Positions 8,507 to 24,551 of a stretch of DNA of 64,000 nt are shown piece by piece (position 1 is the first letter of the stretch; each line of letters opens with the position of its first letter). The DNA is taken from the sequence record OQ938542.1; one strand, 5' to 3'. The DNA is from Escherichia phage vB_EcoP_PE007. The position numbers and the translations under genes are program-made. The notes beneath the pieces are model-generated. The model searched no databases. It was given only the letters and a program-made list of their open reading frames with translations, and was not told where the DNA came from.

Positions 8507-9340
8507 ATGCCAACTTTAAAAGTAGGTTTTAACAAAACCACTAATGTTGCAACTGTACTGGATGCCAGTGGTTCTATCCCAGGTGGTTCCGTAGAAGTAG
8601 GAACCTTTGTACACCCAGATGCCACTTACCCTGATAGCTTAGTTATCTTCCATGGTGTTCGTGACCTGCTGTATAAACGTTCTGCTAAAGACCCAAGTAA
8701 AGTAGGCTTCTGGCCTAACAACATCGTGGATATGCAGTCTATCTCTATTGATATGAAAGCTACTCCACGACTGACTATTGCTACCAAACTGCCACGTGTA
8801 GTCTCTGCTATTGAAGGTGAAGATATTAACTGGCACGTTGATGTAGCAGGTGGGAAAGCACCATTTACTTATAAATGGCAATTCAAAGCTGATACTGCTG
8901 GTGCAGCATTCGCTGATATTAGCTCCAGTACTAACCCATCTGCTGCTACTGCAACATTGACCCTTAATGATGTAACAGCTACTTCTGCTGGTACTTACAA
9001 AGTGATTGTTACTGATGCTAATGGAACCACGGTAGAGGATGGGTCACTATTAGCTGTAGGCTATTACGAAGCAAGCTCACTGGTAGCTACTCCTGCTTCA
9101 CTGGCTCTGTCTGTTGCTGCCGATGCTGTTGCTGGTAAGACTGTAACAATTGTTGCTATGCCCGTTGGTTCATCTGCTGGTACTTTGTCTATCAAGACTG
9201 CTCCAGATTCTGCTCGTGCTACGGCTACCATTGCTGGTAACGTACTGACAGTTAAACCAGTGGCTGCTGGTGATACTACTTCTGTAGTAGTTACCAACGG
9301 TATAGTCGATGTAACCATCCCTGTTACTGTTGCAGAATAA
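8507..9340 (+). CDS. Ig-like domain protein, candidate capsid decoration protein (N4 gp17-like position)
   Basis: ATG 8507 with GAGGA RBS; 277 aa; Ig-like sequence features (FTYKWQF...TSAGTYKVIVTD); sits just after RNAPII genes. Confidence 0.5.
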   Translation: MPTLKVGFNKTTNVATVLDASGSIPGGSVEVGTFVHPDATYPDSLVIFHGVRDLLYKRSAKDPSKVGFWPNNIVDMQSISIDMKATPRLTIATKLPRVVSAIEGEDINWHVDVAGGKAPFTYKWQFKADTAGAAFADISSSTNPSAATATLTLNDVTATSAGTYKVIVTDANGTTVEDGSLLAVGYYEASSLVATPASLALSVAADAVAGKTVTIVAMPVGSSAGTLSIKTAPDSARATATIAGNVLTVKPVAAGDTTSVVVTNGIVDVTIPVTVAE

Positions 9341-9362
9341 TAGTACTTCTTTTTGTGGTTAT

Positions 9363-9388
9363 AGCCCTCCTTAGTGAGGGCTTTCTTG
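9363..9388 (+). terminator. stem-loop, probable terminator
   Basis: agccctc/gagggct stem, weak T tract. Confidence 0.45.
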
Positions 9389-9407
9389 TATCTATAGGAG
9401 AGTAAAA

Positions 9408-9716
9408 ATGACACAGAAATTACGTGTATGGCACATTCCCCAAATGCCAATGAAGGCATTTCATGTAGAAACTGATAGTCTTCAGGAAGCTGTTAAGATT
9501 AAGAATGCGTTAGCAGACTATGACCTATTCCAGTATGAGAACAATGTCAAAGGCGATTATGCTAATGCTAACGGTATTGAGATGTGGGATGAGTCCCTCA
9601 CTGACCAAGACCTTATTGATAGGGAATTGGAGGACCGTTGGGTAGATTGGTATATTGAAACTGAAGACGATTTCTTTGATGACCCAGAAGAATATCTGAA
9701 TTATCTAATCAAGTAA
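9408..9716 (+). CDS. acidic hypothetical protein
   Basis: 102 aa, strongly acidic C-terminal half. Confidence 0.5.
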   Translation: MTQKLRVWHIPQMPMKAFHVETDSLQEAVKIKNALADYDLFQYENNVKGDYANANGIEMWDESLTDQDLIDRELEDRWVDWYIETEDDFFDDPEEYLNYLIK

Positions 9717-9769
9717 GTATGATTGCTTTATTTGGGGTTATAAACCCTGAAATGAAACCCTCAAGTTTG

Positions 9770-9798
9770 ACCTCCCTATTGAAGGGAGGTCTTTTTTT
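9770..9798 (+). terminator. intrinsic terminator
   Basis: acctccc/gggaggt stem plus ttttttt. Confidence 0.7.
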
Positions 9799-9823
9799 GA
9801 CTTAAACATCCTGGAGCCAGGAA

Positions 9824-10012
9824 ATGTACAAAGAGATTGCGTTTTTCTCATTCTTACTAGGTGGTTTGATAGGTGCAGGATTTGTAGCTATTTCTAATAC
9901 CTACTTTGGTTCTACTCCAAACTCTGTAACACAAACCCTCAAGCATGAATGTGAATTGAATATCCCTCGTAATCAAAACTGTGTAATGCAGTTCGTACCG
10001 GAGAAGAAATGA
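9824..10012 (+). CDS. small membrane protein
   Basis: 62 aa with hydrophobic N-terminal segment. Confidence 0.45.
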   Translation: MYKEIAFFSFLLGGLIGAGFVAISNTYFGSTPNSVTQTLKHECELNIPRNQNCVMQFVPEKK

Positions 10013-10269
10013 ATATTCATAATCTACATTTGGTTGAAAAACTGTATGAAGAATACAACGACAACCGACAGCAATTAGCTAGTTTGAAGAAAGCTCCACA
10101 TATGGTGAAAGTATCCTTTTACGATAAGGATTTAGGACCGCAAGCTCGTACAAGAATACTACCTGAGCTACTGTCATTTTATCAAAATAAGGTAGATGAC
10201 TTAGAGAAACGCCTGAAGCATTTAGGTGTAGATTTATCAACGCTACCGGATGAAGGAGAAGATGAGTGA
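10009..10269 (+). CDS. hypothetical protein
   Basis: 86-aa ORF, overlapping start/stop. Confidence 0.5.
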   Translation: MNIHNLHLVEKLYEEYNDNRQQLASLKKAPHMVKVSFYDKDLGPQARTRILPELLSFYQNKVDDLEKRLKHLGVDLSTLPDEGEDE

Positions 10270-10475
10270 AAGTAACAAATCGTTCTGAGAACAATGAGGT
10301 AACTTTCGGTGATGTGGAGCCTGCTAATGGTTTTATTTATAACCAGACAGTGTGTTTAAAGATTCACTTACCTGATGGTAAACCTGCTGCTGTTGCTGTA
10401 GAAACTGGTAAATCATTCTGTCTATCTGCAAGTACATTCGTAACACCAATAAACCTGGAAGGATATTACCTTTGA
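10266..10475 (+). CDS. hypothetical protein
   Basis: 69-aa ORF. Confidence 0.45.
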   Translation: MKVTNRSENNEVTFGDVEPANGFIYNQTVCLKIHLPDGKPAAVAVETGKSFCLSASTFVTPINLEGYYL

Positions 10476-14019: not shown

Positions 14020-14055
14020 GTGAAGAAACTAACTCAACCCCACATAGGAACCATC

Positions 14056-14298
14056 ATGGAATCTTTAGCAGCAATCCTTGTTATGTTGTTTGTATTAGCT
14101 GTATACCTTATCCCTACTATCATTGCTTTCTCACGAGGCCATGCCTCTAAGTGGGGTATTGGTGTGCTTAATATCGTATTAGGCTGGTCTTTAGTCTTCT
14201 GGGTAGTAGCACTGATTTGGTCGCTGTCCAACAAAGGACAGAACCAAGTTACAAATGTAACTGTTGTCCAAACCAATGGTGGCAGTAAAGCAGAGTAA
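14056..14298 (+). CDS. superinfection-immunity (Imm)-like small membrane protein
   Basis: ATG 14056 with AGGAA RBS; 80 aa, two hydrophobic helices; IPTIIAFSRGH...NIVLGWSLVFWVVALIWSL pattern recalled for Imm family. Confidence 0.5.
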   Translation: MESLAAILVMLFVLAVYLIPTIIAFSRGHASKWGIGVLNIVLGWSLVFWVVALIWSLSNKGQNQVTNVTVVQTNGGSKAE

Positions 14299-22303: not shown

Positions 22304-22666
22304 ATGGGTTGCCATCTGGAAGAAGTAGAAGAAATGCTTCAGACCATTTATCCAAATGGTAGTTACGATGCAGAATTACTGCAACGTGCACAGGATGCTC
22401 TTACAAACCTGGCAAACCATATGAAACGTAATGACGATGCTTATCGCATTGATGCTAGTACCAACCTGCTGGATGCACTGGCAGACCAGATTGTTACAGC
22501 AACTGGCGTCGGTACTTTCCTTGGGATGAATGTCCCTGGAGCATTGGCTGAAGTCAATCGCTCAAACTATTCTAAGTTTGAAGATGGTGAACCTGTCTTC
22601 AATGAGAATAAGAAAGTTATGAAAGGGAAAGACTACACTCCCCCGGATTTAAGCCCTTACATCTAA
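22304..22666 (+). CDS. hypothetical protein, possibly MazG-like NTP pyrophosphohydrolase
   Basis: ATG 22304 in frame of ORF 22205-22666; helical acidic protein; assignment tentative. Confidence 0.3.
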   Translation: MGCHLEEVEEMLQTIYPNGSYDAELLQRAQDALTNLANHMKRNDDAYRIDASTNLLDALADQIVTATGVGTFLGMNVPGALAEVNRSNYSKFEDGEPVFNENKKVMKGKDYTPPDLSPYI

Positions 22667-22687
22667 CCCTCTACGGAGGGTTTTTTA
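22665..22687 (+). terminator. intrinsic terminator
   Basis: aaccctc-tacg-gagggtt plus tttttt. Confidence 0.7.
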
Positions 22688-22699
22688 CTGGAGATTTTA

Positions 22700-24010
22700 A
22701 TGTTTTCCAAACCTACCAAAGCCCCACTGAACAAGGGGCAAGAAGCGGTTGCGAAGGAGTTCTTCGACTTCCTGCTCAACCCTAATGCTACCGAATTCAA
22801 TATTAGTGGCCCTGGGGGAACTGGCAAGACATTCCTGATGTCGCACCTCATTGATGACACTATGCCTGCATATATGGAAACTTGCTCCCTTATGGGAACC
22901 AAGCCCCTGTATAACGAAGTTGTTATGACTGCGACCACGAACAAGGCTGCTGAAGTTCTGGCTCAGGCTACTGGACGTCCAACATCTACCTATCATTCCT
23001 TCCAGGGACTGATTGTTAAGAATGACTTTAAGACCGGTGAGGCTAATGTCGTACCGTCTAAATCATTCAATATTAAGAAGAACAAAATCATCTTCGTAGA
23101 TGAAGCATCCATGATTGACCGTCAGTTACTTAAATATGCTCGTGAAGGTACTCACCAGTGCAAACTGGTATTCGTAGGCGATGCTTCTCAGCTTCTGCCT
23201 GTTAAAGAGAATAAGTCTCCCGTGTATGCAGGTAATATCCCAACACACTATCTGACTGAACAGATGCGTACCGATGCACCGGAACTAAAAGCATTGCACC
23301 AGCAATTGCGTGATACGGTAGAAGGTAAGACAGGTTTCCTGCCTATTAAGTGTATTCCAGGCATTATTGACTGGGTACAGGGAGAAGAGATGGAGAAACT
23401 GGTTCTCAGTCACTTCACTCAACCCACCAACAGCCGTATTGTTGCTTACACAAATGACCAGGTTATTAATTACAATAACTACATTCGTGAAGCCAATGGT
23501 TACGTGGGTGAGTACTCCATCGGTGAACAGTTAGTTTCTAACTCTGCTGTTCGCTTAGGTGTGGAAGACCGTCTGTCTATCGAGCAAGACGTAAAACTCA
23601 TCGACCAGGATAGCAGTACTCGCATGATTCAGGTTACAGGTGACCTGGAACTGGAAGTCCGTGATAGTACTCTGGACCTTGGCTATGGTGGTATTGTAAG
23701 TGAAGTCCCAGTACCTACCGACCCAGAATACTTCAACCGTTTGGTTAAGTGGCTAGGTAAGGAGAAGAACTGGGAACCTTACTTCCGTCTTAAAGAAACC
23801 ATTCCAGACCTACGTGCTACTCATGCATGTACTGTCCATAAATCACAAGGCTCTACTTACGACACAATCTTCATTGATGCAGATGACCTCTCAAGCTGTC
23901 GCCAACCGGATATGGTTGCTCGTCTGCTTTACGTCGCTGTGTCTCGTGCCCGTAAGCGAGTAGTGTTTTATGGCAATCTTGCCAGTAAGTATGGTGGTCT
24001 AACTTTCTAA
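22700..24010 (+). CDS. SF1 DNA helicase (Dda/RecD-like)
   Basis: 436 aa; Walker A GPGGTGKT, Walker B IIFVDEASMID, C-terminal VHKSQGSTYD...VAVSRARK. Confidence 0.7.
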   Translation: MFSKPTKAPLNKGQEAVAKEFFDFLLNPNATEFNISGPGGTGKTFLMSHLIDDTMPAYMETCSLMGTKPLYNEVVMTATTNKAAEVLAQATGRPTSTYHSFQGLIVKNDFKTGEANVVPSKSFNIKKNKIIFVDEASMIDRQLLKYAREGTHQCKLVFVGDASQLLPVKENKSPVYAGNIPTHYLTEQMRTDAPELKALHQQLRDTVEGKTGFLPIKCIPGIIDWVQGEEMEKLVLSHFTQPTNSRIVAYTNDQVINYNNYIREANGYVGEYSIGEQLVSNSAVRLGVEDRLSIEQDVKLIDQDSSTRMIQVTGDLELEVRDSTLDLGYGGIVSEVPVPTDPEYFNRLVKWLGKEKNWEPYFRLKETIPDLRATHACTVHKSQGSTYDTIFIDADDLSSCRQPDMVARLLYVAVSRARKRVVFYGNLASKYGGLTF

Positions 24011-24020
24011 GGGAGGATAT

Positions 24021-24551
24021 ATGCCTCAGATTGGTTCAGCGACTATTGGTCAGGTTGCCAATAGCAGTGAGATAGTCAAACACCTGTTCTTAGCAGAACT
24101 GGTTCGTCTTGATAATGTGTTAAACGGTATCATTGATAAGAACGACCGTATCAATGGTATTGATGTATCGGCTGGATTCCTTTATCAAGGGGAGTTCTAT
24201 CAGCGTTCTAATGCTTCCAGACCTCCGACCTACGGTGAGCGATTAACGCTTAATCCAGAACTTTGGCCTGCAATGGACAAGTATCTGAAAGCCTCCAGTC
24301 GTCTGATTATGGAAGTACACCTAGTGAACCAGACTGTTTATCGCCTGGTTCGTGGTTGTATGTCTTATCAGGATGTACGTGATGCTTTGCCTGAATGCCT
24401 GGTAGCCCAGGACCAGACTGGTAAGTACAAGGAACTACCACGTACTCGTGAAGCAGCCTGGACACTTGCTGGTGATCCTATGGCAATAAAACAGTATGAG
24501 AAGATTCTTCCCTCTATTGAGTACTATGCAGCTTCTCATCTGATTTTCTAG
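24021..24551 (+). CDS. hypothetical protein
   Basis: 176-aa ORF. Confidence 0.5.
   Translation: MPQIGSATIGQVANSSEIVKHLFLAELVRLDNVLNGIIDKNDRINGIDVSAGFLYQGEFYQRSNASRPPTYGERLTLNPELWPAMDKYLKASSRLIMEVHLVNQTVYRLVRGCMSYQDVRDALPECLVAQDQTGKYKELPRTREAAWTLAGDPMAIKQYEKILPSIEYYAASHLIF

Follow-up and report, generated by a model that had tools for sequence, protein, structure and literature searches.

Identity and family of gp18

As judged from its sequence, gp18 of the phage studied here belongs to the P22 gp17 family (PF17420) and is, within Gamaleyavirus, the ortholog of N4 gp18. The family is catalogued and the ortholog annotated, so the protein is already known. By analogy with P22 gp17, we give slightly better than even chances to the view that gp18 acts as an accessory cytoplasmic inhibitor in counter-defence. 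The window, by which we mean the whole 64-kb stretch of DNA that was analysed, comes from an N4-like coliphage of the genus Gamaleyavirus (G7C-like, Schitoviridae); its segment 8000-12000 is 91-95% identical to phages St11Ph5, Bp4, ECBP1, and IME11. The coordinates of gp18 and of the features around it are listed in Table 1.

Table 1. Features of the gp18 locus (positions are those of the window)
Feature	Position	Strand	Basis or remark
gp18 CDS, 102 aa acidic protein	9408..9716	+	ORF, translation, Pfam, PHROG, tblastn, dN/dS
Shine-Dalgarno AGGAG, 7 nt 5' of ATG	9396..9400	+	direct sequence reading
gp18 cassette, 379 bp (hairpin, RBS, CDS)	9352..9730	+	alignment with ECBP1
Left copy of imperfect 16-nt direct repeat TTTGKGGTTATARMCC	9352..9367	+	cassette edge
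Right copy of direct repeat TTTGKGGTTATARMCC	9731..9746	+	379 bp downstream of left copy
Upstream GC-rich hairpin AGCCCTC-loop-GAGGGCT	9363..9382	+	7 bp stem, after gp17 decoration gene
Downstream intrinsic terminator	9769..9798	+	hairpin 9769-9791, 9 bp (6 GC), then T7

In Pfam, the gp18 protein scored 151 bits (E 1.1e-44) with the profile PF17420 (GP17, "Superinfection exclusion gene product 17"), for which the gathering cutoff is 25, and its residues 4-100 were aligned with profile positions 2-96 of 98. PHROG 1510 was matched at E 8.4e-49. Homologues of gp18 were detected by tblastn in 325 of 50,697 phage records. The orthologs of G7C-like phages were 87-89% identical, N4 gp18 (ABK54387.1) was 60.6% identical over its full length, and P22 gene 17 (AB362338.2) was 69.6% identical (E 3e-32). 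Taken together with its lambdoid relatives, P22 gene 17 showed 69.6-72% identity over residues 4-82, and at the DNA level the P22-like phages could be aligned over 239 nt at about 71% identity. Kuttervirus and other Ackermannviridae reached about 60%, and weaker tblastn matches were found in Bacillus, Nocardia, and Mycobacterium phages.

The protein is not an orphan: the GenBank record of N4 already annotates gp18 as "similar to P22 gp17"; public databases moreover contain proteins 87-95% identical to gp18 of the window. The position of the gene is that seen in N4: the decoration-protein gene gp17 immediately precedes it, in the same orientation, and the window ORF upstream of it encodes Ig-like domains, as in Hoc-like gp17. 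All characters of PF17420 and of the N4 gp18 orthologous group that can be examined in a sequence were found in gp18 of the window. No match for the protein was obtained in NCBIfam or PADLOC, and a phmmer search of PDB sequences gave a chance-level match only (4kh9, E 0.059).

The family as a whole is large. When 1.84 billion representative proteins were searched with a profile and matches with E up to 1e-3 were counted, 1237 clusters at 50% identity were returned. Some longer GP17 members carry fused domains, namely the N4 gp49/Sf6 gp66 family, DUF6166, and a weak match resembling the RNAP alpha-CTD; these fusions are heterogeneous and non-enzymatic and therefore provide no functional lead. 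The neighbourhoods of distant members consist of small unannotated ORFs in runs, among which a conserved partner was not found. A scan of IMG/VR loci recovered P22-like prophages for the most part and added no diversity.

Several unusual variants were also seen. In five of them (P0009, P0023, P0029, P0033, and P0047; 154-159 aa) gp18 is preceded by about 50 additional N-terminal residues, which include a Walker-A-like GxxxxGKS motif. Some of the contigs encoding these extended variants are N4-like and about 72 kb long, and in P0009 GP17 is the sole domain recognised by Pfam. A metagenomic protein of 103 aa (P0074) combines gp18 residues 1-56 with the C-terminus of a homolog of the window ORF 10266-10475. 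The two parts are apparently fused at an ANG(I/F) junction common to both (window 9408-9575 and 10266-10475), and P0074 resembles a deletion variant from which about 0.85 kb is missing.

Composition, conservation, and predicted fold

The 102-aa ORF was present as first described, with an ATG start preceded by AGGAG. The protein has a pI of 4.13, a net charge of -16, and a D+E content of 24.5%, which makes it the most acidic product among the approximately 90 plus-strand ORFs of the window (ATG-initiated, at least 60 aa). The charge is distributed unevenly, with -1 in the N-terminal and -15 in the C-terminal half, so that the strongly acidic C-terminal half reported previously is confirmed; the acidic string cited for it corresponds to residues 61-96. 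The highest mean hydropathy over 19 residues was -0.06 (Kyte-Doolittle), and the predicted product is a soluble protein of 12 kDa that has no membrane segment. With an overall dN/dS of 0.16 (reference St11Ph5), gp18 reads as a real gene under purifying selection. An ORF on the opposite strand (9064-9459) overlaps the conserved decoration gene gp17 and was for that reason not accepted as a gene.

Two further acidic ORFs were noted on the plus strand of the window. One, at 10009-10269, encodes 86 aa with a pI of 5.5 and a PDEGEDE end; the other, at 33256-33696, encodes 146 aa with a pI of 4.35 and a net charge of -20. Pfam gave no match for either. One of the two may be the protein to which the preliminary description referred as the first acidic small protein.

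Conservation and charge were measured in an alignment of 60 diverse GP17 members. Ten positions were invariant (P11, Q12, Y38, D39, F41, Q42, K48, D50, G56, and W78), all of them present in gp18 of the window, and a further eleven were conserved at 90% or above. Most of the positions in these two classes lie within the first 56 residues, which are near-invariant in phages of Proteobacteria, Firmicutes, and Actinobacteria. The family motifs (R)VWHIPQ, ADYDxFQ, KxDYxNxxG, and W can all be recognised in gp18 of the window. Up to G56 the mean net charge of the aligned proteins was -1.45. Beyond G56 the proteins differ in sequence and length, and every one of them is acidic there, with a mean net charge of -12.8 (range, -6 to -18); residues 63-74 of gp18 represent an insertion found in about 60% of members. 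The acidity of gp18 is, on this alignment, a family trait and not a matter of chance.

An AlphaFold2 model of gp18, with the GP17 alignment as input, was compact and fully ordered (mean pLDDT 95.7, pTM 0.83). Strands were predicted at residues 5-10, 18-22, 54-60, and 78-80, and helices at 25-44, 66-71, and 93-101. The model thus describes a single compact domain of beta-beta-alpha-beta-(alpha)-beta-alpha order. Since the model is ordered throughout, the acidic half would belong to the fold and would not form a disordered tail. A family member at 45% identity, in which the insertion is missing, was also modelled in the beta-beta-alpha-beta-beta-alpha order (pLDDT 93.4). The fold common to the two proteins means that the lack of a conserved fold, which had been named as grounds for abandoning the original reading, was not what we found.

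Neither model had a PDB counterpart with E below 0.5 in Foldseek. For both the top PDB match was ERH, the enhancer of rudimentary homolog (E 0.57-0.63, TM 0.40-0.48, rmsd 5-7 A). Like gp18, ERH is a small alpha+beta domain; however, ERH is eukaryotic, and the match, which lacks significance, does not imply homology. Known DNA mimics, sponges, and anti-CRISPRs in the PDB gave nothing better than E 3, and the matches in BFVD were members of the GP17 family only.

These results bear on the suggestion that gp18 is a DNA mimic, that is, that its acidic surface imitates the DNA backbone and competitively blocks enzymes that bind DNA, for example restriction-modification systems, nucleases resembling RecBCD, or nucleoid proteins. 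Ocr and gp5.9 of T7, ArdA, and Arn of T4 are DNA-mimic inhibitors of DNA-binding enzymes, and a conserved charge on a variable sequence is the pattern of such proteins. The net charge of -16 over 102 aa agrees with this suggestion, as does the C-terminal acidity kept in 60 of 60 aligned members despite the variable sequence; the P22 homolog also adjoins ral and anti-RecBCD genes. On the other hand, the invariant residues, together with the conserved basic residues K4, R6, K16, and K48, are situated in the near-neutral N-terminal part, and the conserved recognition surface of gp18 appears from the alignment to be this non-acidic part. Neither phmmer against PDB sequences nor Foldseek revealed similarity to solved mimics; p56 and AcrIIA15 were among the Foldseek matches, but with E >3, and no match to the Pfam families of Ocr (PF08684) or ArdA (PF07275) was seen at E up to 10. 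Since DNA mimics differ from one another in fold, the missing structural match only weakens the idea. Ocr, ArdA, Arn, and gp5.9 are small, acidic, cytoplasmic inhibitors of defence acting early in infection; gp18 is likewise small and acidic, but resembles none of them in sequence or fold. Of the properties of a mimic surface, it is the high negative charge that is established for gp18. Given the compact fold, the lack of a significant PDB match, and the invariant residues in the non-acidic half, the idea gained no positive support, and we regard DNA mimicry as improbable.

A segment within the acidic half may have a history of its own. Residues 61-82 (window 9588-9653) are 82% identical to P22 gp17 and 64% identical to St11Ph5, whereas the flanking segments are 95% identical to St11Ph5. 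In residues 61-75 the synonymous differences from St11Ph5 are too many for correction. The comparison suggests that residues 61-82 form a mosaic patch, with a surface helix exchanged by recombination between phage lineages. Positive selection on residues 61-75 was considered and set aside, the segment being read as a recombinant patch. A mosaic of this kind fits a shuffled specificity region.

The gp18 cassette, its flanks, and its expression

Comparison with close relatives delimited gp18 as a cassette bordered by the two copies of the direct repeat listed in Table 1. The repeat TTTGKGGTTATARMCC had two matches in the whole window, where 0.04 would be expected. In ECBP1 the segment 9352-9730 is missing and only the right repeat copy is found: immediately after the stop codon of the decoration gene comes the sequence that starts at window position 9731 and continues into the 9769-9798 terminator. 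In Bp4 the slot of gp18 is occupied by a hydrophobic ORF of 86 aa (orf75) with its own terminator, unrelated to gp18. The gap between the gp17 decoration gene and gp17.1 can be described as a variable hotspot (window 9340-9830; ECBP1 L004 1841-1947; Bp4 L005 1840-2300).

A close homolog of the decoration gene next to gp18 was present in approximately 52-55 G7C-like phage records, of which 13, or about one-quarter, carried the cassette at a coverage of at least 80%. A more divergent copy of gp18 is carried by Shigella phage Moo19. The patchy occurrence in G7C-like phages differs from the situation in N4-type phages, where gp18 was present in all the records found in these searches. N4 gp18 is syntenic with gp18 of the window and has the same terminator-gene-terminator layout, but belongs to the genus Enquatrovirus instead of Gamaleyavirus. 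Judging from the alignments, gp18 is an accessory indel cassette that is dispensable and cleanly absent from some close relatives.

It has been proposed that gp18 is flanked by terminators as a solitary unit. Hairpins are indeed present on both sides of the gene. The downstream one (context -19.9 kcal/mol, z -4.2 versus shuffled controls) agrees in full with the description of a Rho-independent terminator, and it serves the gp17 decoration gene directly in phages that do not have the cassette. The upstream hairpin (-17.3 kcal/mol in a 51-nt context, z -3.2 versus shuffled controls) agrees in its stem only, the T tail being poor and broken (TTTCTTGTATC). Because of this weak tail it is better regarded as a leaky terminator or an RNA-stability hairpin, so that the terminator flanking holds for the downstream side and in part for the upstream side. 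A similar arrangement is known from phage vB_Eco_AL25, in which an N4-type gp18 has annotated terminators on both sides. A search of Rfam with window 9000-10100 gave nothing above threshold and sub-threshold matches on the terminator hairpins only.

The solitary character of the unit was likewise sustained only in part: the hairpins stand on both sides, but the upstream one is separated from the ATG of gp18 by 25 nt, and no site was found before gp18 in a scan for sigma-70 promoters. Given the short gap and the lack of a sigma-70-like site, either read-through or an unrecognised promoter of a phage RNAP probably accounts for the expression of gp18. Flanking by terminators had further been taken as a layout typical of inhibitors that act in host takeover. 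It is not recognised as a signature of such proteins, and here it reflects a small indel cassette.

The distribution of the cassette is also relevant to the possibility that gp18 inhibits an essential, conserved host protein of transcription, replication, division, or proteolysis in favour of the phage. The gene is located within early/middle blocks of small proteins, and an N-terminal motif so extremely conserved in phages of distant phyla would fit a universal target. However, gp18 is dispensable, being missing from ECBP1, Bp4, and about three-quarters of the G7C-like records, and the phenotype of P22 17- is conditional on a prophage, according to PMC6486243 and PMC9409062. Inhibition of an essential host protein is thus unlikely, to about the same degree as DNA mimicry.

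Function of the family and the proposed role of gp18

The only member of the family for which the literature provided a phenotype is the founding one. It has been reported that P22 requires gp17 for growth on Fels-2 lysogens, with Semerjian et al. (1989) as the source cited in PMC6486243 and PMC9409062; the phenotype is reported for P22 gp17 alone. P22 gp17 is an anti-exclusion factor, and the "superinfection exclusion" label given to gp18 orthologs in RefSeq relatives and in PHROG 1510 is a misnomer. The database label is misleading because the founding member counters exclusion. The PL operons of P22 and of an Stx phage contain the gene together with ral, cIII, kil, and abc1/2 or gam. The PL operon block consists of classical takeover and counter-defence genes. 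Our literature search turned up no experiments on N4 gp18 or its G7C-like homologs, and searches on N4 gp18, PF17420, and P22 gene 17 found no mechanistic work.

P22 gp17 (103 aa) resembles gp18 in having an acidic C-terminal part and all the invariant residues and in being encoded among pre-late accessory genes. The two proteins differ at the end, where the last 20 residues are 40% identical, and in their hosts and life styles: P22 is a temperate lambdoid Salmonella phage, whereas the phage of the window is a virulent N4-like coliphage. The counter-defence role is assigned to gp18 by analogy, because P22 gp17, the founder of the family, is needed on Fels-2 lysogens. If the analogy holds, gp18 would be produced ahead of late gene expression and would inhibit its target stoichiometrically in the cytoplasm, neutralising by binding an abortive-infection or exclusion protein of a prophage or of the host. 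Alternatively, gp18 might mask the trigger of that exclusion protein. In either case the phage would be able to grow in strains that are otherwise non-permissive. The general idea of an inhibitor-type protein, already put forward in the preliminary description, is consistent with the P22 gp17 family; an orphan status, DNA mimicry, and a layout signature do not survive.

A candidate for the system countered by P22 gp17 was found in the Fels-2 prophage (NC_010463). The product of STM2723.1 (22639-24336, minus strand) matched PADLOC AbiU at 2.7e-112 and Pfam AIPR at 8.8e-43, and the gene is situated in the old/tin hotspot of P2, beside the portal gene Q. Of the four Fels-2 cargo genes scanned, this AbiU/AIPR gene alone was recognised as a defence gene; the other three had no defence-family match, and for STM2726, which adjoins STM2723.1 and encodes 243 aa, no family match of any kind was obtained. 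As the only recognised defence gene scanned, abiU is therefore a reasonable candidate. It is possible, but rather unlikely, that the GP17 family, including P22 gp17, N4 gp18, and gp18 of the window, inhibits abortive infection of the AbiU/AIPR type. On this assumption the invariant N-terminal surface would recognise some feature conserved among AIPR proteins, and specificity would be tuned by residues 61-82, which form the shuffled acidic patch. We found no paper linking gp17 to AbiU, and in the papers found the Fels-2 determinant that excludes P22 17- was not identified. Close DNA homologs of Fels-2 abiU were detected in 7 of 5426 complete E. coli genomes; this allele is rare in E. coli and therefore cannot account for the retention of gp18 in coliphages. 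An N-terminal part that is near-invariant across phyla could equally fit a host target that is conserved universally, or a small ligand.

The latter possibility may be framed after Tad1, Tad2, and Acb2, which are sponges that sequester immune signalling molecules. According to this scheme, which is pure speculation, gp18 would hold such a molecule in a pocket of invariant aromatic and polar residues, and Q12, Y38, D39, F41, Q42, K48, D50, and W78 could form its lining. A small protein from a widespread family would suit this function, and conservation across phyla would suit a universal ligand. However, Foldseek detected no structural similarity to the sponges in the PDB, and AbiU/AIPR, the only recognised defence gene scanned in Fels-2, is not known to rely on signalling nucleotides. 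We consider a sponge very improbable.

That gp18 itself blocks the entry or development of a second phage, as the database label taken literally would have it, deserves hardly any credence: the label goes back to P22 gp17, itself a factor that counters exclusion and does not cause it, gp18 has no signal peptide or transmembrane segment, unlike classical Sie proteins, and a separate Imm-type membrane protein (PF14373) is encoded elsewhere in the window. P22 SieA and T4 Imm/Sp (PF14373) share with gp18 the database label and nothing else; they are membrane proteins that block DNA entry, whereas gp18 is predicted to be soluble and is acidic. When gp18 was examined for the membrane anchor of Sie/Imm-type proteins none was found, nor was there a match to Imm_superinfect.

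The Imm-type protein just mentioned is a hydrophobic protein of 92 aa encoded at window 14020-14298 (plus strand), which matched Pfam PF14373 (Imm_superinfect) at E 7.5e-17. Its counterpart in St11Ph5 is gp27.1, annotated as "immunity to superinfection". By this similarity it is the membrane-type superinfection-immunity candidate of the window.

Significance

As a finding of a genome scan, gp18 is an ordinary, recognisable, and annotated member of its family. The family itself is of wider interest: GP17 comprises more than 1200 clusters (at 50% identity), occurs in phages that infect several bacterial phyla, and is confidently predicted to adopt a fold with no solved relative. Annotation pipelines spread a misleading "superinfection exclusion" label for a family whose founder acts in anti-exclusion, or counter-defence. 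The AbiU/AIPR gene in Fels-2 offers a cheap and concrete hypothesis for the counter-defence role favoured here; if it is true, GP17 proteins would be the first anti-AbiU factor, with a fold absent from the PDB. Should proteins of the gp18 type neutralise an abortive-infection system that is common, their patchy occurrence would help to predict the host range of N4-like phages under consideration for therapy.
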